This document shows, piece after piece, positions 38,155 through 48,516 of a stretch of DNA of 57,495 bases. Made by a program: the position numbers and the translations under genes. This stretch comes from a virus (lineage: Duplodnaviria > Caudoviricetes). Location: positions 1 through 57,495 of IMG/VR virus record IMGVR_UViG_3300034071_002361; one strand, 5' to 3'. The notes below the pieces were generated by a model. The model saw only the letters and a list, made by a program, of their open reading frames with translations. It had not been told where the DNA came from and did not search any database. How positions within the stretch are numbered: position 1 is the stretch's first letter; each line of letters opens with the position of its first letter.

Positions 38155-41100
38155 ATGCGCCGCATTCAGGTGCCGTCGGGACGGATCTTCGAGTTCCCAA
38201 CCGACGCGACGGACGACCAGATCAACGAGTTCCTATCGGGCCTTGATCAGCGCACGCTTTCCGAAGAGCGCAGCACAGCTCGAGCTGCTGGCGACATCGG
38301 CGTCGACTTCGCAGCCGGCGTCGCTGGCATGGTCCCGACCGCGATCGATGCGGTGCAGGTCGACGAGGTGCCTCGCGCTGTAACTGCCGAAGGCCGGGCG
38401 CGCGCCCTGATGGGCGAAACCGCTGGCGACATCGTCGGTGCAATCCAGAGCGTCAGCCCGGCTGGCGACATCGAGAAGCGCACGATTCGCGCCACGGAGA
38501 TGGCTGCCGGCGGACTGCGCGGCGCGGGCGAAACGCTTCAGGAAGTTGGCGCCATGCCCGGCCGCCCCGTCGAGCAGGCCCTGACCGCAACCGGCATCCC
38601 GGGCGCAGCGCTCATCGGCAGGAACGTCGACAAGATCGGTGGCTTCTTGCAGCGCGCTGGCGACTTCATCGGCGGCGACATTGCTGAGGCGCGCGCCACG
38701 GAGAATGCGCAGCGCGTTGCTGCCGGGCAGAAAACGCTCGAGCAGGAATCGCAGCAGCAGGTCACCAGTCGAGCGGCTAACGCGGTCAGCGGCTTTGTCG
38801 ACGATCAGGCGAACAACCTGCGAAGCGATTACGCCAATGCCATCTCCGCCGAGATGGGCAAGGCCATTGATGGCGGCGTCGGCACCACTGCCGAGTTCAT
38901 TGCCGACAGCCCGGGCGAGGCACTCAGCGCTGTGCTCGGCGGCTCGGCGGCCTACCTGATCCCGGGCCTTGCCTCGGCCCGTCTGGCCAAGATCGCCGGC
39001 GCGTCGGAGGGTCTTGCCACGGCCGCGGCGGTGCAAGGCACCAGCGCCGTCGTATCGGCGCAGGGCGCCGAGGGGGCCCGAGACCTCGTCATGGGCATGA
39101 GCGAGGAGCAGCTGCTCAGCGTGCCCGAGTACATGGCCGAGCGTGACCGCGGCCTTGACCACGAGCAGGCCCAGCTCGCCATCGCCAACAAGGCGTACGA
39201 CGCCGCTGCAGGCGCAGGCTTCGCGCTGAACGCCACCACTGGCGCCGTCGCCCAGCGCCTTGGCCTCGCCCCGGTCGAGCAGCTCATGGCCCGTGGCGGC
39301 CGCATCCCGGGTGTTGGCCGCGTCGCCGGCGCCGTGGGCTCTGCGATTCGCGAGGCCCCGGGCGAGGCGCTGCAGGGCGCGGGTGAGGCCCTTGGCCAAA
39401 ACCTTGGCGGCGTCGCCGCCGGGACCATGGAGGGCCGCGACGCCTTCGAGGGCGTCGGTGCCAATGCGCTGCTCGAGGCCGCGGCCGGCGCCGGAATCGG
39501 CGGCATCACCGGCTTCGTTGCCCCTCAGGCCAAGGCGGCCGAGGTCACCAGCCAGCCGACCGACCAGACCAACCCGGCGGCTCAGGCCGCCCGGGACGTG
39601 GCAGAGATCTACAGCGCGGCTCGTCAGGCCGAGCAGGAGCGCCCCAGCGCGCCGCCTGCCACCGCCCCCGTCGACGCTGCGCCAGAGCAGCCGGCGCCCG
39701 CCACAGCCTCGCCTGCTTCGCTCATGGGCGGCTTCGCCGCCGCGACCCCGCTCGACCAGAACGCCAAGCCCGCTGACGAACTCGAGGCCCAGCTCCAGCA
39801 GGCCGGCGCTGCCCCGGTCATCCGCCCTGCCGCGGAGCCCGAAGGCATGGCTGCGCTCGAGGCCTTCCAGCGTCAGCAGGCTGCACAGAATCCCCCGGCG
39901 TCGACCTCCGCTCCGTTGGGCGAAACGCCTCAACATGACGGCGCGGTAACGCCGGGGGCCCAATCGCGTCCGCGGCCGCGCGACCTGCCGGCCGTCGTGC
40001 CGTCGCCGAAGCGCGCCAAGGTTCCGCTGCGCGAGCTGAAGGCCGCCGGCCAGACGCAGCTCCCGCCGATCCGCCCGGCAGTTCCCGTCCGCGCCCCAGT
40101 CGTGGCGCCGCCCCCGGACGTTGCCGCCGCGGTGGCCGCGCAGCCTGACCGCATCAGCTTCAGCGACAACGACGTCGTCGCCCGGGCCAAGCTCGAGCAG
40201 ACCTTCCTCGGCTTCGGCATCGAGCCGGAGCTGGCGCGCACCATGGCGCAGAACGACACCGTCCCCAGTGGCGCCATCCGCGACAGCGTTACCGGCGGCT
40301 TCGACGGTCGCGCCGACGGCGTCAAGTCCGGCACCCTGCAGCGCGCGATCGACCACGTCGACCAGACGGGCGAGGATTCGTTCTTCGTCAGTGCCGACAT
40401 CAGCAACCTCGGCGGCCTGAACAAGTTCCACAACGACGTGGCCGACGAGGCGAACCGCGACTTCCGCGGCCTGACCGACGTCCTGCTGGAGGAGCTGCGC
40501 GCCACCGGCGCCGACGTCGTCCCCATGCGTACCGGCGGCGACGAGGTCGGCTACGTGGTCGTGAACGCTTCGCAAGAAGCTGTCAATGCGGCCACCGAAC
40601 GAGCACGGTCCCGTGCCGTGGAGTATGCTCGGTCCCGGGGCTTCGACCAGATCCCGCACACCAAGGCGTCCCGCACCGACAAGGGCGTGACTTTCCACAC
40701 CGGGGTGGCGCGCATCCAGCCGGGCCTGACCGTCGAGGAGATCGCCCGCGAGGCAGACCTCGGCGTGAATGCCAGCAAGAATGCGGCCTCGCCAACCAAG
40801 GAGACGAGCACCAATGAGCGACGAGAAGCGACTGGAGAGGCTGGGCCTCTCGCATCTGGCGGACAAGCCGGACGAGCTGCAGGCGGAGACGCAGCGGCAG
40901 CTGGCGGAACTGCGGGCGAAGTCGGATCGACTGCGCAGCGAGCGGATGGCCAGCGCCCCGGCGCCGCGCCGCAGCCCGATGGCGGCAGCCCCGGCCAAGT
41001 AGCCGGCGGCACTGCGCCGGCTTCCGCTGGCGCACGCATCGACCCCTTCGTCGAGTCGACCGTTCGCGCGCTGGGCCTGAGCCCGGATGCTGTGGCCATC

Positions 41101-44100
41101 GTCGACGCGCCGTCCGATCTGCCTGCCGGCGTCAGCAGCCGCGGCCTCGACGGCAAGACTGAGGGCATCTACGACCCGAAGACCGGCAAGGTCTACCTGT
41201 TCCGCGGCGCGCTGGTCAGCCCTTCGCGCGCCGTCTGGGTCACCCTCCACGAGCTGGCCGGCCACAAGGGCCTGCGCGCCCTGCTGCCGCAGGAGCAGTT
41301 TGCCCGGACCATGCAGGAGGCCGGGACCAATCCGACCATCCGCGGCATCGCCATGGCCATGATGGCCGAGGCCCGGGCTGAGGCAGAGGCCGGCGCCGCC
41401 GGCGCGCGCCCGGCCACCGACCCGACGCTGTTCATCGAAGAGGCGCTGGCCGAGTACACGGCTGCGTGGTTCACCGGCGACATCGATGCGCTGATGGATC
41501 GCTACGGCGATGCCGTGATGTTCTCGCGCCAGCAGACGGCCGAGATCGATTCGCGCATTGAGCAGGAGCGCAAGGCTGCTGAGGGCGTGGTCAAGCGCGC
41601 CATCGCCGCGGTGAAGCGCGCCCTCTTCAACACGCCGGACGTCGGCACTCGCCTGCGCATGAGCGACGCCGAGGTGGTCGGACTCATCAGCAACGCTTAC
41701 AAGTCGCTGCGCGCTGGCCAGAAACAGGCGGCTGAAGGCGCGACCATGCAGAGCCGCGTGCCGCTCTCGTCGAAGTGGATGACCGAGGACTTCGCCAAGG
41801 CGCGCAAGCAGCTTGGCCTGAGTGTCGACGGCGAGAACAAGGTGCGCAGCGTTGGCGAGGCGCTCGATGCCTACGTCGCCAAGCGCAATGGGCGAATCGA
41901 ACCGAAGGATCGCAGCCCCGAGGCGATGACCAAGATCGCCGCCGCGATGGCCGACGAGGTCATGGTGCAGATCGGCGACACCGCGCAGCAGACCGGCTCC
42001 GGCGTCGGCTGGTATTCGGTCAACTACCCGAACGCGGTGCGCCGCCTTGCGTCGCGATTCCCTGAGCTGGACAGCGACAGCGAGGCTGCAGCTCGCGGCA
42101 TGGTCAATGCCGATTCCGCTCGCAACCTGTTCACGATGATCCTCGCCGTGACGTCGAACGGCGAGAAGGTGCGCCAGAACCTGAAGATGGCGACGGAGAT
42201 GTTCGCCGCCTTCCGTGATGGCGCCAGCCTGCGCGACGCCATGCCGGGCACTCGCCGCGCCGAGGCTCTCGAGAACAACATCGAGGTGATCGATCAGCTC
42301 ATCTCTCGCTTTGGCATGGACGGCATTCGCCAGCACCTGCTGTCGGAGATGACCGTCAAGGAGATCAATGCCGAGCTGCGCAAGCGCGGCGAGAAGCCGA
42401 GCAGCGACTACACGGCAGACATGACGCTGCCGCGATCGGCCCTGTACTTCGGCGCCAAGCTGGGCGCGTTCTACGCGAACCTCGCTGGCTCCACTGGCTA
42501 CCTGACCATGGACCTGTGGTGGTCGCGCAGCTTCAACCGCTACCGCGCGAACATGCTCCCGGCTCCGACGGATAGCGGCATGGCTGCGCTTCGCGGCCTG
42601 CTTGGCCTGCCGGACAGCGCCAGCATGGAGCAGCTCATCGAGGCCGCTACGCCGTACTGGAAGGCCTACAAGGATCGCGGCTATAAGGACGGCAGCGACA
42701 TCGAGAAGAAGGCCAACACCTTCATCAAGGCCGCCGTGCTCGAGCTGAACGAGGCGCCGACCAGCGCGACCGAGCGCAAGTTCATGGTCGAGACGGCGAT
42801 CGAGGCCCAGCGCCGCCTTCGCCGCCGCGGCGTCGACCTCACGCTGGCCGACATTCAGGCCGCCCTTTGGTACTATGAGAAGCGTCTGTACGACGGCCTT
42901 GGTGTTCGCGGCCGTGACGACATTGGCTACGAGGAGGCCATCAATGAACAAGCCCAAGGTGATCGACCCGACGGACCCGCTGCACGAGGCGGTGGATCGG
43001 GCGGTGATGTCGTCGAACCCGGCCGATCGGGCGCAGAAGCTGATGGCGCTCGCGGGCGTCGAGCCGGCCGAGGACTCGCCCGAGCAGGGCGCGATGCGCG
43101 TGGCCAAGATGCGGGCGCAGAACCGCAGCCTGCTCTCCAGAGCCGCCTCCCCGGCGCGCCGGTAGTCCGTGGCTTCGACGGGCCGGACCCCCGGCTCGTC
43201 GCTGTTGCTGAGCAGTACGCCCGGGACAACGGCATCCAGCTCCGTCGACAGGCGGAGTACGTCAAGGTCGACCCCGAGCGCGCCAAGCGCATCGCCGACG
43301 CTTACGAGGCGATGGAGCACGCGCCGAATGACCCGCGCGTCCGCGCCGCCTACCGCTCGCTGATCGACCAGACGCTTGCCCAGTACCGCGCGCTCGAGGC
43401 CGCGGGCTACCGCTTCTGGTTCATCGATCTCGAGAGCGAGGCTGGCCAGCAGTACACCAGCTCGCCGTGGAACGCGATGCGCGACATCCGCGCCAACCAG
43501 CGCATGGGCGTGTTCCCGACGGCCGAGGGCTTCGGCAGCGGGGCCAGCGACCTCGATGTCGCCGACAACCCCATGCTCGAGGACACCGGCATCCGCTGGC
43601 CGTTCGGTGGCCCGGACGGCGAGGCCAAGCCGGTGCTGGCCAACGACCTGTTCCGTGCCGTGCATGACGCCTTCGGCCATGGCATCGAGGGCTCTGGCTT
43701 CCGCGCCGACGGCGAGGAGAACGCGTGGCAGGCCCACGTCCGCCTGTTCACTGGCGACGCGGTGGCGGCCATCACCAGCGAGACGCGCGGCCAGAACTCG
43801 TGGCTCAACTTCGGCCCGTTCGGTGAACGCAACCGCACCGCCTCCGCCGAGGAGACGGTGTTCGCAGACCAGAAGACCGGCCTCATGCCAGAATGGACGT
43901 GGCTCGAAGGTCGAGCTGGCGACATGCAGGAGGACGCCAATGAACAAGAGCAAGCCGACACCCGCGCCGCCGCCGATGGACAGCCCGGAGTTCGACGCGA
44001 TGGTGCGCCGGGCAGTGCAGGCGGACCTCTCCAGTCGCGCAGCTTCCCCGAAGACGCCCCGTCCTTCCGGCAGCGCAAGCAGCAAAAAGACGCGGTAAGC

Positions 44101-47100
44101 GCGAACGGCATCCACTACAGCGGCACCGCCGGGCTCACTGCGCTCGACGGCAAGTTCGCTGGAGCTGGCTCTGCCGGCAATGAGCGTCGCCGATTCGGCA
44201 CTGGCCAGTACGGTGCTCGCGCTGAGCCGGGCGACACCGGCCGCCGCCTGTACTTCTACGTGCAGGAAGGCGACACGCCGCCGCGCAAGGAGGACGTCGT
44301 CGCCGGCAACAACCGCTACGCGGTCGAGCTGACGAACCTCTACGACTACGAGGCAGACCCGCGCGGACTGCGCGAGGATGCCGGCGCGAACATGGACTAC
44401 CTCGAGGAGCTGGTGAACGACGCCGGCTTCGACGGCCTTCTGCTGCCTCCGCTCGCTGGCATCGAAGGCAAGATCGCGATCCTGCACGGGCTCAAGAAGA
44501 AGGTGCCGATCATCAGCGCGCCGCTGCAGTCGCGCAGCAAATCGGCGATCGGCGACGAGTGGGGCGCCAGCCACTCCGGCAGCTCGGCCATCACCACGGC
44601 GTCGATGCAGATCATGGCGATCCCGGGCCGCGAGATGGAGCAGTGGCGATCGCGTGAGAGCGTCGATCGACTCGAGCGCATGGCCGTCACTGCCCTGTCC
44701 GAGATTGCCGCTGATCGCGAAGGCTCCGAGGAGCGCCTGTACCACGGCTTCGAAGATGTCGACGGCCGCGAGTTCCCGATCGGTCGAGTGGTCAAGCTCG
44801 GCTTGACGTCTGCCAGTGGCGACCTCAGCAGCTCCGCCTCGTATGGCATCCGCCTCGATGAGGCTGACCAGCGCGGCACGCCGACGGCCTATGAGTTCCC
44901 TGTCGGAACTCCGATGTCGGCATACGGAGTCTGGAGCGAGGCCGACGCTCGCGAGTTCGGGCACCGCTATTCGGAGGCCATCGTTGCCGGCGAGTACGAG
45001 GTCACCGGAGTTCGCGAAGAGCGCGCAAGCAACTGGCGCCGCACCCCTGTGCGCGTCGTGTCGCTCAAGCCCCTTCGCGTCTTCGATCCTCAGGCCATGC
45101 AGTGGACGCCTGTCGGTGACGCGCCGCTGCAGTCGCGCCAGACGCAGGACGCCCGCGCTGCCGCAGCAGCTCTCCGCACGCGCAAGTCGCAGCTCGCTCG
45201 CGAGCTGACCACGAACCTGACCACTGCCGAACAGGTCAAGGCGTGGACGCAGCGCGCTCGCCTGTTGATCGGCGAGGTGTCGACGTCGCGCGACTTCGCC
45301 GAAGAGATCGTCGAGGCCAAGCGCATGCTGACGCCTGAGCGCCGCGACGCACTGCAGGGCGACCGCGAGGCGCTGAAGCGTTACGACGCGGTGCGCGACA
45401 TGATCGCGATCGCCGAGCAGGGCATGTCCGCAGTCCGCTCGAAGCAGGCGCAGGCCAATCGCCTGCTGGACAAGGTCGAGCGCCGCACGTCGACGATGTC
45501 GTTGGCCGAGCGCGAGGCGCTGGTCGACGAGCTGACTGGCGCACTCGATGAGGCAGAGCGTGCCTACGTCGCCGCAAAGCGAATCGCCGACTGGCGCGCG
45601 GCCAACGACTACAAGGTGATCAAGGCGCACAAGAAGCGCAGCGACATGCTCGACTTCCTCGCTGCCGAGGGCTACCAGCAGGGCAGCTTCCTGTGGGCAA
45701 GCAACGGCATCAAGGATCTCGCGGCCAAGGCGAAGCGGTACTTCCGCCGCCTGCTGCAGGACAAGATGATCGACATGCGCGACGTGCAGGACGAGATCGA
45801 GCGCCAGCTCGGCCGTTCGATCGACGACCTGCAGAACGTGTACCGCATGGAGAACCTGATGCACGGCAAGACCGCCGATCGCATCGAGTCCTTCCGCGTG
45901 AAGCTGGTCGAGCCGCTGAAGGCTGCGGTCAAGGCGACTGGCCTGTCTCAGGACGCCGTCGACAAGTACCTCTGGGCGAAGCACGCCAAGGAGCGCAACG
46001 CCAAGATCCGGGCGATCCGCCCGGGCGTGGACGACGGCAGCGGCATGACCGACGCCGAGGCCGATGCCCAGCTCGCCAGCTACACCCCGGAGCAGCTCGC
46101 CTCTCTGGAGGCCGTCAGCCGCCGCGTGGAGGCCGTGAGGCGCGCCTCGCTGCAGACGCTGGTCGAGGCAGGGCAGCTGACCGCGGAGGCCGCACAGGCG
46201 ATCCAGAGCAGCTACAGCCACTACGTCCCGCTGCGCGGCAAGGACGGCGAGGGCGAGGAGCGCGTCGGCGGCCGCGGCACTGGGCAGGGCATCAGCGCCG
46301 GCAGCCCGGGCGTGCAGCGCGCGCTCGGCCGCAAGACCCCGCCGAAGAACATCCTCGCCGAGCTTGTCGGCGACGGCGAGCGCGCCATCGTGCAGGCCGG
46401 CAAGGCCGAGGTCGGGCGCTCCCTGCTGCGTCTGGTGCTGTCGTACCCGAACCCGGGCCTGTGGTCGCTCGAGCCGGTCGTGCTCGAGCCGAAGTTCAGC
46501 GAGGCGACCGGCGAGGTGTACCTGTCGATCGGCACGCCGGACGACGCCGAGACGGTGATCGTGAAGCACAACGGCAAGCCGTACCGCGTGCAGATCAAGC
46601 ACCCGCGATTGGTCGAGGCGCTGAAGAACACTGGCGTCACTGGCACCGAGTGGGCGGTGAAGTACATCGGCTGGGTCAACCGCTGGTTCTCCGCGGTCTT
46701 CACCCGGTTCAACCCGGGCTTCGTGCCGGTGAACCTTGCGCGCGACCTGCTGCAGGGCGCGAGCGGCCTGTACGCGGAGCTGGGCGCCAAGAGCGCCGGC
46801 GTTGTGCTGGCCAACTGGCGCGCCGCCTTCGCTGCTTCGTATCGCGATTCGCGCGGCCAGCGCGGCGACAGCACCATTGCCGACGACAAGAAGGCCATGG
46901 TCGACTGGGCCCGCGAGTTCGCAGAGCAGGGCGGCAAGACCGGCTACACCGCAATGGAAGACTCGGACACGCTGCAGCAGAAGATCGAGGACTCGATGCT
47001 CCCGATCGCTGACGTCGTGCGCAAGCACAAGGGCAACCCGATCCCGGTGCTCGCACAGGTCTTCGAGCGCAGCGACACGCTTCAGTGGATCGAGGACGTC

Positions 47101-48516
47101 AACGACGGCGTCGAGAATGCTCTGCGCATCGCGACCTACGCTCACCTCCGCAAGGACAAGGGCTGGTCGAAGCAGCGTGCAGCGACCTACGCGAAGGAGA
47201 TGACGGTCAACTTCAACCGCAAGGGCATGGCTGGCTCCTTCATAAACTCGCTGTACCTGTTCTTCAATGCGGCCGTGCAGGGCTCGCGTCGCACACTGCA
47301 GCTCATGAACCACCCGAAGGTCAGGGTCATGCTCGGCGGTCTGGCCATGGGCCAGTTCGCCTTTGCCATGGCGCTCGGCATGCAGACGTTCGGCGATGAC
47401 GACGACGAGACGCTGTGGGAGAAGATCCCCGACCACGCCAAGCGCCGCGGCTTCATCATCCCGCTGGGCTTCGACGACGACGGCACCGCCCGCTACATCT
47501 CGATCCCGATGCCGTTCGGCTTCAACGTGTTCCCGGCGACTGGCGGCTACCTCGCCAACTACCTGAGCCCGAACTGGCGCGGCCGCATGGGCGACTCGCC
47601 GATCAAGCACGGCACCGAGGCGATGGCATACATGACCTCGACTGCGATCGACGCAGTGAGCCCTGTCCCGGTCGGCGAGGAGGGCTGGTTCCAGCCGACG
47701 CTGGTCCGCCTCTACACCAACCTCGAGCGCAACAAGGACGACCTCGGCCGGCGCATTCGCCCGAGCGAGGACTTCAGTGAGTTCGACCTGCCGCGCGCCG
47801 CGCTTTACACGCCGGGCACGCCGGAGTCGCTGGTGCTTATCGCCAAGGGCCTGAACCGCCTCGGCGGCGGCGATGACCTGACCCCGCCGAAGCTTGCGCC
47901 AAGCTTCACCGACGTCAGCCCGAACGACCTCGAGTACCTGCTTGGCCAGTTCACTGGCGGCCCGGGAACGGTGCTGCTGCAGTCGACGCGTGCAGCGACG
48001 CGCGAGCTGGCGATCGGCGACATGGCCAGCTTCGACATCCCGGTCGTGCGTGCGGTGTCCGGTGGCGTGCGCCCTGAGCAGCGCGAGGCTGCGCGCTTCT
48101 ACGACAACAAGGACACCTACGAGCGCAACCTCGAGCGCATCCAAGTGGCCTATGCCGAAGGTGGTATCGAGGAGATGCGTCGCGTGCAGGCCGAGCTTGG
48201 CCCGGCCTACGCGGGCATCGATCCGAAGATTCGCAAGACGACCACGGAGAACGGCGAAGCCGGCACTGCGTTCGTCAACGCCAGCGGCCAGCCTCAGCTG
48301 GCGCCGCTGGAGGGCAGCGTGCTTGAGGAGTACCGCGCCGCGGAGAGGGATCTGCGCGAGATCTCAGCGGCAATGCGCGCGGTCTACAACAACCGCGACC
48401 TCGGCCCTATCGAGCGCCAGCGCCAGCTCGTCGAGCTTCAGCGCAAGCGCGAGGATGCGACCAAGGAGTTCAACCGCCTGATGTCCCGGGCGAATGTCGC
48501 AAGGTCGGGCGGCTAG
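38155..48516 (+). CDS. Giant polyvalent ejection-type protein: GGDEF, HExxxH metallopeptidase, glycosylase-like, HDxxGH, two ART-like and LPD38-like C-terminal domains
   Basis: 3453-aa ORF with GAGG SD; motifs RTGGDEV, HELAGH..EEALAE, GWY/LAVTS/TMDLW/QAALW, HDAFGH, IHYS/LYFY, LYHG/TSAS/SEAIV, NP.F...N..RD, TVNFNRKG, LYLFFNAAVQG, IPMPFG. Confidence 0.85.
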   Translation: MRRIQVPSGRIFEFPTDATDDQINEFLSGLDQRTLSEERSTARAAGDIGVDFAAGVAGMVPTAIDAVQVDEVPRAVTAEGRARALMGETAGDIVGAIQSVSPAGDIEKRTIRATEMAAGGLRGAGETLQEVGAMPGRPVEQALTATGIPGAALIGRNVDKIGGFLQRAGDFIGGDIAEARATENAQRVAAGQKTLEQESQQQVTSRAANAVSGFVDDQANNLRSDYANAISAEMGKAIDGGVGTTAEFIADSPGEALSAVLGGSAAYLIPGLASARLAKIAGASEGLATAAAVQGTSAVVSAQGAEGARDLVMGMSEEQLLSVPEYMAERDRGLDHEQAQLAIANKAYDAAAGAGFALNATTGAVAQRLGLAPVEQLMARGGRIPGVGRVAGAVGSAIREAPGEALQGAGEALGQNLGGVAAGTMEGRDAFEGVGANALLEAAAGAGIGGITGFVAPQAKAAEVTSQPTDQTNPAAQAARDVAEIYSAARQAEQERPSAPPATAPVDAAPEQPAPATASPASLMGGFAAATPLDQNAKPADELEAQLQQAGAAPVIRPAAEPEGMAALEAFQRQQAAQNPPASTSAPLGETPQHDGAVTPGAQSRPRPRDLPAVVPSPKRAKVPLRELKAAGQTQLPPIRPAVPVRAPVVAPPPDVAAAVAAQPDRISFSDNDVVARAKLEQTFLGFGIEPELARTMAQNDTVPSGAIRDSVTGGFDGRADGVKSGTLQRAIDHVDQTGEDSFFVSADISNLGGLNKFHNDVADEANRDFRGLTDVLLEELRATGADVVPMRTGGDEVGYVVVNASQEAVNAATERARSRAVEYARSRGFDQIPHTKASRTDKGVTFHTGVARIQPGLTVEEIAREADLGVNASKNAASPTKETSTNERREATGEAGPLASGGQAGRAAGGDAAAAGGTAGEVGSTAQRADGQRPGAAPQPDGGSPGQVAGGTAPASAGARIDPFVESTVRALGLSPDAVAIVDAPSDLPAGVSSRGLDGKTEGIYDPKTGKVYLFRGALVSPSRAVWVTLHELAGHKGLRALLPQEQFARTMQEAGTNPTIRGIAMAMMAEARAEAEAGAAGARPATDPTLFIEEALAEYTAAWFTGDIDALMDRYGDAVMFSRQQTAEIDSRIEQERKAAEGVVKRAIAAVKRALFNTPDVGTRLRMSDAEVVGLISNAYKSLRAGQKQAAEGATMQSRVPLSSKWMTEDFAKARKQLGLSVDGENKVRSVGEALDAYVAKRNGRIEPKDRSPEAMTKIAAAMADEVMVQIGDTAQQTGSGVGWYSVNYPNAVRRLASRFPELDSDSEAAARGMVNADSARNLFTMILAVTSNGEKVRQNLKMATEMFAAFRDGASLRDAMPGTRRAEALENNIEVIDQLISRFGMDGIRQHLLSEMTVKEINAELRKRGEKPSSDYTADMTLPRSALYFGAKLGAFYANLAGSTGYLTMDLWWSRSFNRYRANMLPAPTDSGMAALRGLLGLPDSASMEQLIEAATPYWKAYKDRGYKDGSDIEKKANTFIKAAVLELNEAPTSATERKFMVETAIEAQRRLRRRGVDLTLADIQAALWYYEKRLYDGLGVRGRDDIGYEEAINEQAQGDRPDGPAARGGGSGGDVVEPGRSGAEADGARGRRAGRGLARAGRDARGQDAGAEPQPALQSRLPGAPVVRGFDGPDPRLVAVAEQYARDNGIQLRRQAEYVKVDPERAKRIADAYEAMEHAPNDPRVRAAYRSLIDQTLAQYRALEAAGYRFWFIDLESEAGQQYTSSPWNAMRDIRANQRMGVFPTAEGFGSGASDLDVADNPMLEDTGIRWPFGGPDGEAKPVLANDLFRAVHDAFGHGIEGSGFRADGEENAWQAHVRLFTGDAVAAITSETRGQNSWLNFGPFGERNRTASAEETVFADQKTGLMPEWTWLEGRAGDMQEDANEQEQADTRAAADGQPGVRRDGAPGSAGGPLQSRSFPEDAPSFRQRKQQKDAVSANGIHYSGTAGLTALDGKFAGAGSAGNERRRFGTGQYGARAEPGDTGRRLYFYVQEGDTPPRKEDVVAGNNRYAVELTNLYDYEADPRGLREDAGANMDYLEELVNDAGFDGLLLPPLAGIEGKIAILHGLKKKVPIISAPLQSRSKSAIGDEWGASHSGSSAITTASMQIMAIPGREMEQWRSRESVDRLERMAVTALSEIAADREGSEERLYHGFEDVDGREFPIGRVVKLGLTSASGDLSSSASYGIRLDEADQRGTPTAYEFPVGTPMSAYGVWSEADAREFGHRYSEAIVAGEYEVTGVREERASNWRRTPVRVVSLKPLRVFDPQAMQWTPVGDAPLQSRQTQDARAAAAALRTRKSQLARELTTNLTTAEQVKAWTQRARLLIGEVSTSRDFAEEIVEAKRMLTPERRDALQGDREALKRYDAVRDMIAIAEQGMSAVRSKQAQANRLLDKVERRTSTMSLAEREALVDELTGALDEAERAYVAAKRIADWRAANDYKVIKAHKKRSDMLDFLAAEGYQQGSFLWASNGIKDLAAKAKRYFRRLLQDKMIDMRDVQDEIERQLGRSIDDLQNVYRMENLMHGKTADRIESFRVKLVEPLKAAVKATGLSQDAVDKYLWAKHAKERNAKIRAIRPGVDDGSGMTDAEADAQLASYTPEQLASLEAVSRRVEAVRRASLQTLVEAGQLTAEAAQAIQSSYSHYVPLRGKDGEGEERVGGRGTGQGISAGSPGVQRALGRKTPPKNILAELVGDGERAIVQAGKAEVGRSLLRLVLSYPNPGLWSLEPVVLEPKFSEATGEVYLSIGTPDDAETVIVKHNGKPYRVQIKHPRLVEALKNTGVTGTEWAVKYIGWVNRWFSAVFTRFNPGFVPVNLARDLLQGASGLYAELGAKSAGVVLANWRAAFAASYRDSRGQRGDSTIADDKKAMVDWAREFAEQGGKTGYTAMEDSDTLQQKIEDSMLPIADVVRKHKGNPIPVLAQVFERSDTLQWIEDVNDGVENALRIATYAHLRKDKGWSKQRAATYAKEMTVNFNRKGMAGSFINSLYLFFNAAVQGSRRTLQLMNHPKVRVMLGGLAMGQFAFAMALGMQTFGDDDDETLWEKIPDHAKRRGFIIPLGFDDDGTARYISIPMPFGFNVFPATGGYLANYLSPNWRGRMGDSPIKHGTEAMAYMTSTAIDAVSPVPVGEEGWFQPTLVRLYTNLERNKDDLGRRIRPSEDFSEFDLPRAALYTPGTPESLVLIAKGLNRLGGGDDLTPPKLAPSFTDVSPNDLEYLLGQFTGGPGTVLLQSTRAATRELAIGDMASFDIPVVRAVSGGVRPEQREAARFYDNKDTYERNLERIQVAYAEGGIEEMRRVQAELGPAYAGIDPKIRKTTTENGEAGTAFVNASGQPQLAPLEGSVLEEYRAAERDLREISAAMRAVYNNRDLGPIERQRQLVELQRKREDATKEFNRLMSRANVARSGG
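40814..41002 (+). CDS. Nested +1-frame small ORF after the GGDEF domain (62 aa)
   Basis: AAGGAG SD 10 nt before ATG; MSDEKRLERLGLSHLADKPDELQAETQRQLAELRAK is helical and protein-like. Confidence 0.55.
   Translation: MSDEKRLERLGLSHLADKPDELQAETQRQLAELRAKSDRLRSERMASAPAPRRSPMAAAPAK
42944..43165 (+). CDS. Nested +1-frame small ORF after the glycosylase-like domain (73 aa)
   Basis: GAGGAGG SD 6 nt before ATG; MNKPKVIDPTDPLHEAVDRAVMSSNPADRAQKLMALAG. Confidence 0.6.
   Translation: MNKPKVIDPTDPLHEAVDRAVMSSNPADRAQKLMALAGVEPAEDSPEQGAMRVAKMRAQNRSLLSRAASPARR
43940..44098 (+). CDS. Nested +1-frame small ORF after the HDxxGH domain (52 aa)
   Basis: AGGAGG SD 6 nt before ATG; MNKSKPTPAPPPMDSPEFDAMVRRAVQADL. 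Confidence 0.55.
   Translation: MNKSKPTPAPPPMDSPEFDAMVRRAVQADLSSRAASPKTPRPSGSASSKKTR

Follow-up and report, generated by a model that had tools for sequence, protein, structure and literature searches.

Evidence for small genes overprinted in the +1 frame of inter-module linkers in a giant phage polyvalent-protein gene

The virus record IMGVR_UViG_3300034071_002361, a complete record of 57,495 bp with a GC content of 67% that we analysed over its whole length and call the window, carries a giant open reading frame (ORF) of 3453 amino acids (aa) on the forward strand (positions 38155–48516). Three small ORFs, which we termed n1 (40814–41002, 62 aa), n2 (42944–43165, 73 aa) and n3 (43940–44098, 52 aa), lie wholly inside this gene, on the same strand and in its +1 frame, in the linkers that separate its protein modules. 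Several lines of sequence evidence indicate that they are very likely real nested genes; taken one by one, n2 is real, n1 is very probably real and n3 is uncertain. The product of n2 evolves under purifying selection as a protein while the giant frame drifts, the start signals of its family are maintained by synonymous codon choice in the giant gene, and its conserved part is predicted to bind the module that ends just upstream.

An earlier note on this DNA had placed the three starts at 40814, 42944 and 43940, and each ATG is indeed found there, in the +1 frame of the giant ORF and written within an AAT-GAG or AAT-GAA codon pair. The Shine–Dalgarno (SD) words, spacings and ORF lengths that it gave are also borne out by the sequence. 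The SD of n1 is AAGGAG (40798–40803), 10 nucleotides (nt) 5′ of the ATG; that of n2 is GAGGAGG (42931–42937), 6 nt from the ATG and encoded by the main-frame Glu-Glu codons of the peptide G-Y-E-E-A-I; that of n3 is AGGAGG (43928–43933), again at 6 nt. The N-terminal ~30 aa of n1 and residues 4–42 of n2 (nt 42953–43069) are conserved, and n3 is supported by codon usage and its SD. The giant ORF contains 49 ATGs in its +1 frame, 20 of which open at least 50 aa and four of which are preceded by an SD (at least five letters, 4–12 nt spacing). The combination of an SD with at least 50 open codons is seen only at n1, n2 and n3 (3/49), in all three cases with a six-letter SD.

The nested ORFs also leave a mark on the codon usage of the giant gene. 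The GC content at third codon positions (GC3) of its main frame is 0.855 overall and dips to 0.52 (40777–40959), 0.54 (42865–43152) and 0.61 (43885–44052) at n1, n2 and n3, respectively, and these dips are the three longest and lowest among seven segments with a GC3 below 0.65. In a codon-usage log-likelihood scan, the +1 frame beats the main frame at seven places, with scores of 24.1 for n1, 23.3 for n2, 13.8 for n3 and at most 5.1 for the remaining four. Weak +1 spots were noted at 39901–39984 (5.1) and 44131–44232 (0.8 or less), and the ATG scan found no SD-ATG combination at either. Twelve other genuine genes of the window (5,917 aa), which served as a control, contain no internal alternative-frame segment scoring 5 or more, seven more genes have such a segment only in their 5′ stop-to-stop extension, and ten further high-GC3 ORFs with many alternative-frame segments were taken to be shadow or mis-framed ORFs. 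The signal at the three nested ORFs is thus not an artefact of high GC content.

Contigs of run X1, the probable source run, are identical to the window across all three junctions (40700–42899, 42875–43607 and 43887–44200), and an independent run, X2, is identical at 40865–41123 (inside n1), 42864–43108 (across the n2 start) and 44029–44179 (the end of n3), its coverage being exclusive of the n1 and n3 starts. Run X2 is a second lake-water run, from a different study and year, and it contains the same phage sequence, identical over the compared pieces of 40700–44200.

Evidence that n2 is a protein-coding gene comes from its relatives. The module directly upstream, which we call module 2b (41752–42942), is a conserved all-α domain of about 400 aa that ends in D-D-I-G-Y-E-E-A-I. 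It is present in 53 of 60 related loci fetched from viral contigs, which gives 54 junctions when the window is counted. The peptide motif of n2, V-x-D-[EP]-x-D-P-[LV]-[WH]-S-S...G-[LM]-S-P-x-E-R, follows module 2b directly and in the +1 frame in 41 of these 54 junctions, at loci whose GC content ranges from 43 to 69%, and the giant frame continues for at least 98 aa past the junction in 53 of the 54. Across 31 distinct junctions (mean length 60 codons) stops occur in the main frame in 0/31 and in the third frame in 31/31. The pattern of substitutions was analysed in 30 distinct blocks of 29 codons. Nucleotide diversity by +1 codon position is 0.397/0.264/0.475, so that the third position of the main frame is the least variable, whereas in the module upstream of the same blocks main-frame diversity by position is 0.166/0.086/0.473. 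Amino-acid identity within the blocks is 0.526 in the +1 frame compared to 0.376 in the main and 0.394 in the third frame, and the BLOSUM score per site is 2.85, 1.38 and 1.34, respectively. The giant frame therefore acts, over this stretch, like a non-coding frame that needs only to remain open, and the substitution pattern shows n2 to be under purifying selection as a protein. The earlier note had proposed that selection acts on the +1 frame and that the main frame is passenger linker, and had named codon-position bias across homologues as a check; the check, run for n2 on these 30 blocks, returns a +1 coding pattern, and the proposal holds for n2 in substitution phase and in starts.

The start signals of the n2 family are conserved through codon choice in the giant gene. 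A +1-frame ATG is present at or before the conserved core in all 41 motif-bearing junctions. At most loci it is written within two main-frame Asp codons as GAT-GAC, and the first Asp is GAT in 19 of the 20 distinct D-D junctions although GAT accounts for only 0.21–0.69 of the Asp codons of those genes. In a relative with 69% GC (L016) this Asp is replaced by Asn, and yet the ATG is kept via AAT-GAC. Three to four codons upstream, an Arg codon is AGG or AGA in 17/17 G-R or G-N-R junctions (AGR makes up 0.08–0.52 of Arg codons), a choice that writes GGAAGGA or GGGAGGA at SD distance. Main-frame synonymous diversity over the 30 sequences, averaged from a per-codon table, is 0.50 at codons −44 to −11 and 0.19 at codons −10 to +1, and the fall coincides exactly with the onset of the nested SD and ATG. 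Comparison of synonymous codons in the giant gene thus shows that the start signals of the n2 family are maintained. The window has lost the upstream start of the family (it reads GAC-GAC, with CGN Arg codons) and carries a new ATG seven codons before the core, with the GAGGAGG SD supplied by the Glu-Glu codons. The earlier note would have been contradicted by homologues that keep the module but have lost SD, ATG and open +1 frame; for n2, the ATG is kept in all 41 motif-bearing junctions.

A held-out set of nine contigs of metagenome-assembled genomes, found among representative genomes with the module pattern alone, behaves similarly. The +1 frame is open for at least 43 aa past the anchor in 9/9; the n2 motif is clear in two of these loci (L067 and L072) and present in a divergent form in about five others. 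In L067, the closest relative of the window (58% identical from module 2b to module 3), the +1 frame is closed by a stop one codon ahead of the ATG, which a GGAGG precedes by 9 nt, and in two other loci (L035 and L022) only five +1-frame codons separate the previous stop from the ATG. Because the +1 stop in L067 lies one codon 5′ of the ATG, the +1 frame must be entered there by initiation and not by frameshifting.

Members of the n2 family also exist as called proteins. A profile of the family retrieved 57 proteins at E ≤ 1e-3 (20 of them at E ≤ 1e-10) among 1.84 billion cluster representatives, and 53 of the 57 are 184 aa or shorter. Longer members add the short motif N-L-P-F-D-P and, at the C-terminus, Y-D-P-I-E-D-A-M...F-G-F; in the latter block (family B) differences by nested codon position are 60/38/112 and identities are 233/190/177 of 314 codons. 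The n2 of the window is without these later motifs. In one locus (L060) the arrangement is split: the main frame ends three codons past the anchor and the n2-like peptide forms the N-terminus of the next protein, of 852 aa (L060:6836–9391), which has Zeta_toxin (E = 4.5e-6) and DUF3626 matches. In a called protein (P0038) the n2-like peptide likewise precedes another domain. The peptide pattern of n2 found no relative in the representative genomes, the nested peptides have no family match in Pfam or PHROGs, and an Atlas search with P0003 gave no usable match.

The earlier note had proposed structure co-prediction of each small ORF with its upstream domain. Run for n2 and module 2b, the only pair co-folded, the prediction scores 0.76 compared to 0.00 for the best of three controls; this mark is reached by 58/80 solved complexes and 2/110 mismatched pairs, a calibration that is roughly valid here as custom alignments were used (41 rows for module 2b; 31 of 32 rows for n2). 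The contacts predicted in the three runs agree to at least 80%, and the predicted local distance difference test (pLDDT) value of the partner is 72, while the model of module 2b has a pLDDT of 87.4. On n2, the predicted interface comprises the conserved part, residues 4–42, among them the two invariant Asp and the nearly invariant Arg and Leu; on module 2b it comprises residues 174–254 and 335–365, with the invariant Y-L-T-M-D stretch. The conserved N-terminal two-helix part of n2 is thus predicted to bind the module that ends just upstream. With 14 BFVD matches, module 2b is a frequent component of the polyvalent proteins of uncultured phages; an Atlas lead raises the possibility that it is DUF7178.

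The first nested ORF, n1, lies between the end of module 1 (40342–40785, residues 730–877 of the giant protein) and module 2a (41005–41712). It has the N-terminal motif R-L-x-R-L-G-[LM]-x-H-L-x-[DG]-K-P and is kept in the one close relative, L002, whose modules are 54% identical to those of the window. The two n1 sequences are identical at 33 of 58 positions in the +1 frame and at 19 of 58 in each of the other frames, and their differences by nested codon position number 17/17/27. L002 retains the ATG and has an AGGAGG SD 7 nt before it. The single pair compared shows purifying selection on n1 as a protein, less deeply supported than that on n2, and extends to n1 the proposal of a selected +1 frame within a passenger linker. 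Outside the giant genes, the n1 motif occurs in two called proteins, P0001 (69% identical) and P0002, and in five metagenome loci (L062–L066). In four of these (L062–L065) the homologue is a free-standing small gene that starts at the same Met, the would-be giant frame being open for just 40–117 aa. In the fifth, a metagenome contig with a GC content of 67%, it heads a 450-aa protein with a kinase-like stretch and an FHA domain (L066:1456–2805), so the motif is not confined to phage polyvalent genes. The stretch of module 1 preceding n1 resembles GGDEF domains only weakly and below the Pfam threshold: the GGDEF label of the earlier note is not confirmed, with Pfam scores of 16.4–18.7 bits against a cut-off of 23.8 and E = 0.72 in a PDB search. 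Sequence comparison thus indicates that n1 belongs to a real protein family, yet nothing ties it to this stretch; n1 occurs with its module in one relative only (L002) and elsewhere without it. Module 2a, which is common to the window and L002, carries H-E-x-x-x-H at 41248–41265, a motif by which it may be a zincin.

The third nested ORF has a different history. Its codon-usage score is 13.8 in the window scan and 9.6 in a scan of 61 giant genes, and its SD and ATG are present in the window only. Compared to L002, positions 41713–43965 of the window are an insert that holds module 2b, n2, module 3 (43168–43938; H-D-x-x-G-H at residues 166–171 of this piece, pLDDT of its model 86.3) and the start of n3. 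L002 has a single nested ORF that joins an n2-like middle part to an n3-like end, and n3 is homologous to the C-terminal part of this ORF; in the window, the insertion of module 3 separates the two parts that are joined in the ORF of L002. A called protein with an n2-like N-terminus (P0026) has a C-terminal end that, judged by eye, resembles n3 and the L002 ORF. Furthermore, AGGAGG, a word of 11 nt across the ATG and the first three codons recur in both start regions, that of n2 (42931–42954) and that of n3 (43928–43950), as if the insertion of module 3 had left a duplicated joint. Considering (i) the single ORF of L002, (ii) the end of P0026, (iii) the shared starts and (iv) the lack of a conserved ORF after module 3 elsewhere, n3 most plausibly represents the former C-terminal half of a joint, ancestral n2-n3 protein; the insertion of module 3 would have cut it off, and it would have acquired a new SD and ATG. 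A candidate +1 family upstream of module 3 (family 'E') was dropped, as an ungapped comparison of seven loci points to selection on the main frame there; the likeness of its peptides echoes the main-frame motif P-L-x-G-A-P.

The gene that hosts these ORFs is a phage-type large polyvalent protein gene of the kind described in the main text of Iyer et al. 2017 (PMC5512222). Its product contains an LPD38 domain (PF18857; residues 3088–3298, positions 47416–48048; E = 1.8e-23, 84.1 bits against a Pfam cut-off of 27) and matches PHROG giant-protein families with E-values down to 1.6e-140, and upstream of it lie terminase, portal/adaptor, scaffold and major head genes. By analogy with the family description in that main text, the giant protein is probably packaged in the virion and delivered into the host. 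A megablast search of the giant gene against 50,697 phage records gave no match, and tblastn with the end of module 2b gave one distant match, to Limnohabitans phage DC33 (28.7% identity). An antisense ORF of 3303 aa (38233–48144, minus strand) lies opposite nearly the whole giant gene, and pieces of it appear as shadow frames in the codon scan. Long antisense shadow ORFs are typical of high-GC3 genes.

Overprinting of the same kind may be widespread in related giant genes. The codon-usage scan of 61 such genes returned 47 alternative-frame segments, 46 of them in the +1 frame, which correspond to 39 distinct peptides. Two more recurrent +1 families are seen in relatives (L035:7700–7861, L024:3323–3541 and their relatives), with the motifs M-[DE]-L-x-x-K-[IL]-K-x-L-E-[ND]-S-K-P and M-A-x-V...G-Q-M-[FL]-G-G. 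Differences by nested codon position are 24/41/53 in family C and 122/176/211 in family D, with third positions varying most, and in both families the +1 and the main frame are each better conserved than the third frame, a pattern that points to dual coding. Family J (L058 versus L056; 7/10/6 differences, 17/22/17 identities) is not supportive, and the scan families E_L008, F_L005b, G_L021, H_L041 and I_L012 have no homologous segment among the loci. Some +1 segments (three in L016, one in L041) read as Arg/Pro-rich junk, and the +1 excess may in part be a bias of the method. The preference for +1 may also arise because the first letter of each host codon is the silent third letter of a nested codon, such that stops, which begin with T, are avoidable. 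We tentatively suggest, at somewhat less than even confidence, that in the polyvalent proteins of a large group of uncultured phages the inter-module linkers are routinely overprinted with small +1 genes, several recurring families of which were seen here, that each product is a private binding partner (an inhibitor, an escort or a dock), that modules and partner genes are shuffled together and that the insertion of a module can split a nested gene, as with n2 and n3.

Combining these findings, we favor the following model, in which we place about as much belief as doubt. The inter-module linkers would carry separate small genes in the +1 frame, each with its own SD and ATG and translated from the same late mRNA, and the giant frame would cross them as a nearly unconstrained Gly/Ala/Arg-rich linker that needs only to stay open. 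In the producing cell, the small protein, such as n2 bound to module 2b, would act as an inhibitor or an escort and hold on to the neighboring module up to the packaging of the giant protein, and each module would travel with a partner gene hidden in its flanking linker. The origin that the earlier note had proposed, fusion of effector and antitoxin gene pairs by read-through of the small gene, fits in part: split and free-standing forms exist (L060; the n1 homologues of L062–L065), but n3 does not co-occur with module 3 in other loci and the n1 relatives lack a GGDEF-like neighbor.

Several observations weigh against this model. A look for RNA runs that contain the stretch gave none. The n1 relatives are found beside a primase-like gene, alone or at the N-terminus of the kinase-FHA protein, and never with a GGDEF-like module. 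The n2-type partner is not obligatory, since 13 of the 54 module-2b junctions are without the n2 motif by regular expression and in three loci (L041, L043 and L059) the +1 frame closes 6–9 codons past the anchor. Selection on the +1 frame is absent from the C-terminal ~30 aa of n2, which coincide with the start of module 3, where the main frame is constrained; an ungapped comparison of seven loci over the n2 tail, upstream of module 3, gives a BLOSUM score of 0.47 for the +1 frame versus 2.17 for the main frame. On module 2b, conservation is 0.688 at the predicted interface versus 0.633 in the rest, a difference that is not significant (permutation p = 0.08), and the co-fold would look the same for a free n2 peptide and one attached in cis. 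The labels 'glycosylase-like' and 'catalytic' in the earlier note are not confirmed: modules 2b and 3 have no Pfam match and no PDB sequence match (none below E = 0.16), and their models have 0 PDB fold matches at E ≤ 0.001. As for n3, the comparison with L002 carries no +1 signal: identities are 32/51, 33/51 and 32/51 in the +1, main and third frames, respectively, and differences number 13/15/8 by nested codon position. Nor is module 3 followed by a conserved +1 ORF in L067 or in any of 20 other loci (16 distinct sequences), which argues against the suggestion that n3 is the partner of the HDxxGH module.

The main rival to an inhibitor or escort is a docking or adaptor role, a possible but less likely alternative in which the nested proteins bind their module so as to link the giant protein to a piece of a split protein or to capsid or portal parts. 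An adaptor would account equally well for the predicted complex of n2 and module 2b; the giant frame of L060 stops and the peptide forms the N-terminus of the following protein of 852 aa, which has the Zeta_toxin and DUF3626 matches, in P0038 it stands ahead of another domain, and long family members string together several short conserved motifs in an adaptor-like manner. However, the modules are already covalently joined in 53 of the 54 junctions, and docking is therefore not needed there; a second binding partner was not identified, and the n2 of the window is without the later motifs. An improbable alternative is that the nested ORFs are relics of small genes swallowed by gene fusion, untranslated and decaying. 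The lack of frame-specific selection in n3 relative to L002, its resemblance to the cut-off half of a longer ORF, the unselected tail of n2 and the loss of the ORF in some relatives all fit decay, but a relic would have lost its open frame and SD, whereas n2 has a coding-phase substitution pattern and maintained starts over 30 distinct sequences at 43–69% GC, and n1 keeps 33/58 identities in the +1 frame versus 19/58 in a relative whose modules are just 54% identical.

Two further explanations dispense with a separate gene. A +1 frameshift at the module end, with no initiation of its own, would yield a truncated polyprotein ending in a peptide that folds back on the module; we consider this highly improbable. 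The peptide does start a few codons past the module end and is predicted to pack on that very module, and purine-rich SD-like words near a shift site stimulate frameshifting, as in prfB and dnaX. Nevertheless, the +1 stop one codon before the ATG in L067 and the mere five +1 codons ahead of it in L035 and L022 leave little room for a shift, an ATG is present in 41/41 motif junctions and survives the Asp-to-Asn replacement in L016, free-standing n1 homologues begin at the same Met, and the DNA of the junctions shows neither a conserved slippery site nor a conserved rare-codon site. Finally, it is barely credible that the ORFs are products of chance or composition (shadow ORFs at 67% GC, codon mimicry in linkers), or that the DNA is conserved as a recombination joint for module shuffling. 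The giant gene does contain the antisense shadow ORF and 20 +1 stop-to-stop stretches of at least 50 aa, Arg/Pro-rich junk is found among the +1 segments of L016 and L041, and the 46/47 bias of the scan towards +1 may be partly methodological. Against this stand signals at the protein level (substitution phase, conservative replacements and, compared to the other frames, a twofold BLOSUM score), the 0 segments in control genes, third-frame stops in 31/31 junctions and the 57 called proteins found by the profile; for n1 and n2, an artefact is already largely refuted.

The nearest known architecture to our model of nested partner genes is, by analogy, that of lambda Rz1, a small gene embedded in the +1 frame of Rz, the products of which interact and which gene callers overlooked, as outlined in PMC6139136 and PMC5295617. 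As in Rz/Rz1, the nested genes described here lie wholly inside a larger gene in its +1 frame, have their own start and are missed by gene callers, and binding to the host gene's product is predicted for n2. Unlike Rz/Rz1, they reside in an ejection-type polyvalent gene that follows the head genes and not in a lysis cassette, so the analogy is one of architecture only, and there are up to three of them per host gene, in linkers where the host frame is unconstrained, with other families in relatives. The nearest known logic would be that of the effector-immunity and toxin-antitoxin pairs of polymorphic toxins, including phage MuF-type toxins (PMC5576092, PMC13392607). In both, a small protein is encoded beside the domain that it binds, or here is predicted to bind, and the domains are shuffled as cassettes; in effector-immunity pairs, however, the immunity gene is a separate ORF after the toxin gene, whereas here the small gene is overprinted inside, and n3 fails to co-occur with its module.

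Two other systems bear comparison. Class I chaperones of type III secretion are small proteins encoded beside an injected protein, to which they bind in the producing cell without being injected along with it. No relation of the nested proteins to them was found in sequence or in fold, and the delivery machine is different. In prfB-type programmed +1 frameshifting, an SD-like word lies near the shift to +1 and the new frame gives a C-terminal peptide; here, by contrast, the start codon is conserved, L067 has a +1 stop before the ATG and there is no conserved shift site. The giant ORF with its LPD38 domain is like the large polyvalent proteins of phages and conjugative elements, and in the main text of the article that describes these (Iyer et al. 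2017, PMC5512222) the words 'frameshift', 'overlapping' and 'linker' occur 0 times and nested genes are not mentioned. In the literature on polyvalent proteins, overlapping genes and immunity genes inside toxin genes, taken without supplements, we found no description of the arrangement. The present case differs from Rz/Rz1 and from effector-immunity pairs in that a single host gene contains several nested genes, that these occupy the linkers between modules and that the host frame passes freely through them; parts of the nested genes also appear to travel with the modules.

Gene callers forbid genes within genes, and nested proteins of this kind are consequently absent from phage annotation. 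The arrangement illustrates how an overlap can persist, with a host frame that runs through as free linker and places the first letters of its codons at the silent third positions of the nested gene. Mutations synonymous in the giant gene could, moreover, remove the nested starts. If the small proteins do hold the neighboring modules, this would explain how a phage is able to produce a long series of potentially harmful modules within its own host cell. It would also provide a handle on modules of undefined role, with a natural ligand or inhibitor for each, and, if the overprinting of linkers proves to be routine, it would represent a general way to encode effector-partner pairs inside one reading frame.

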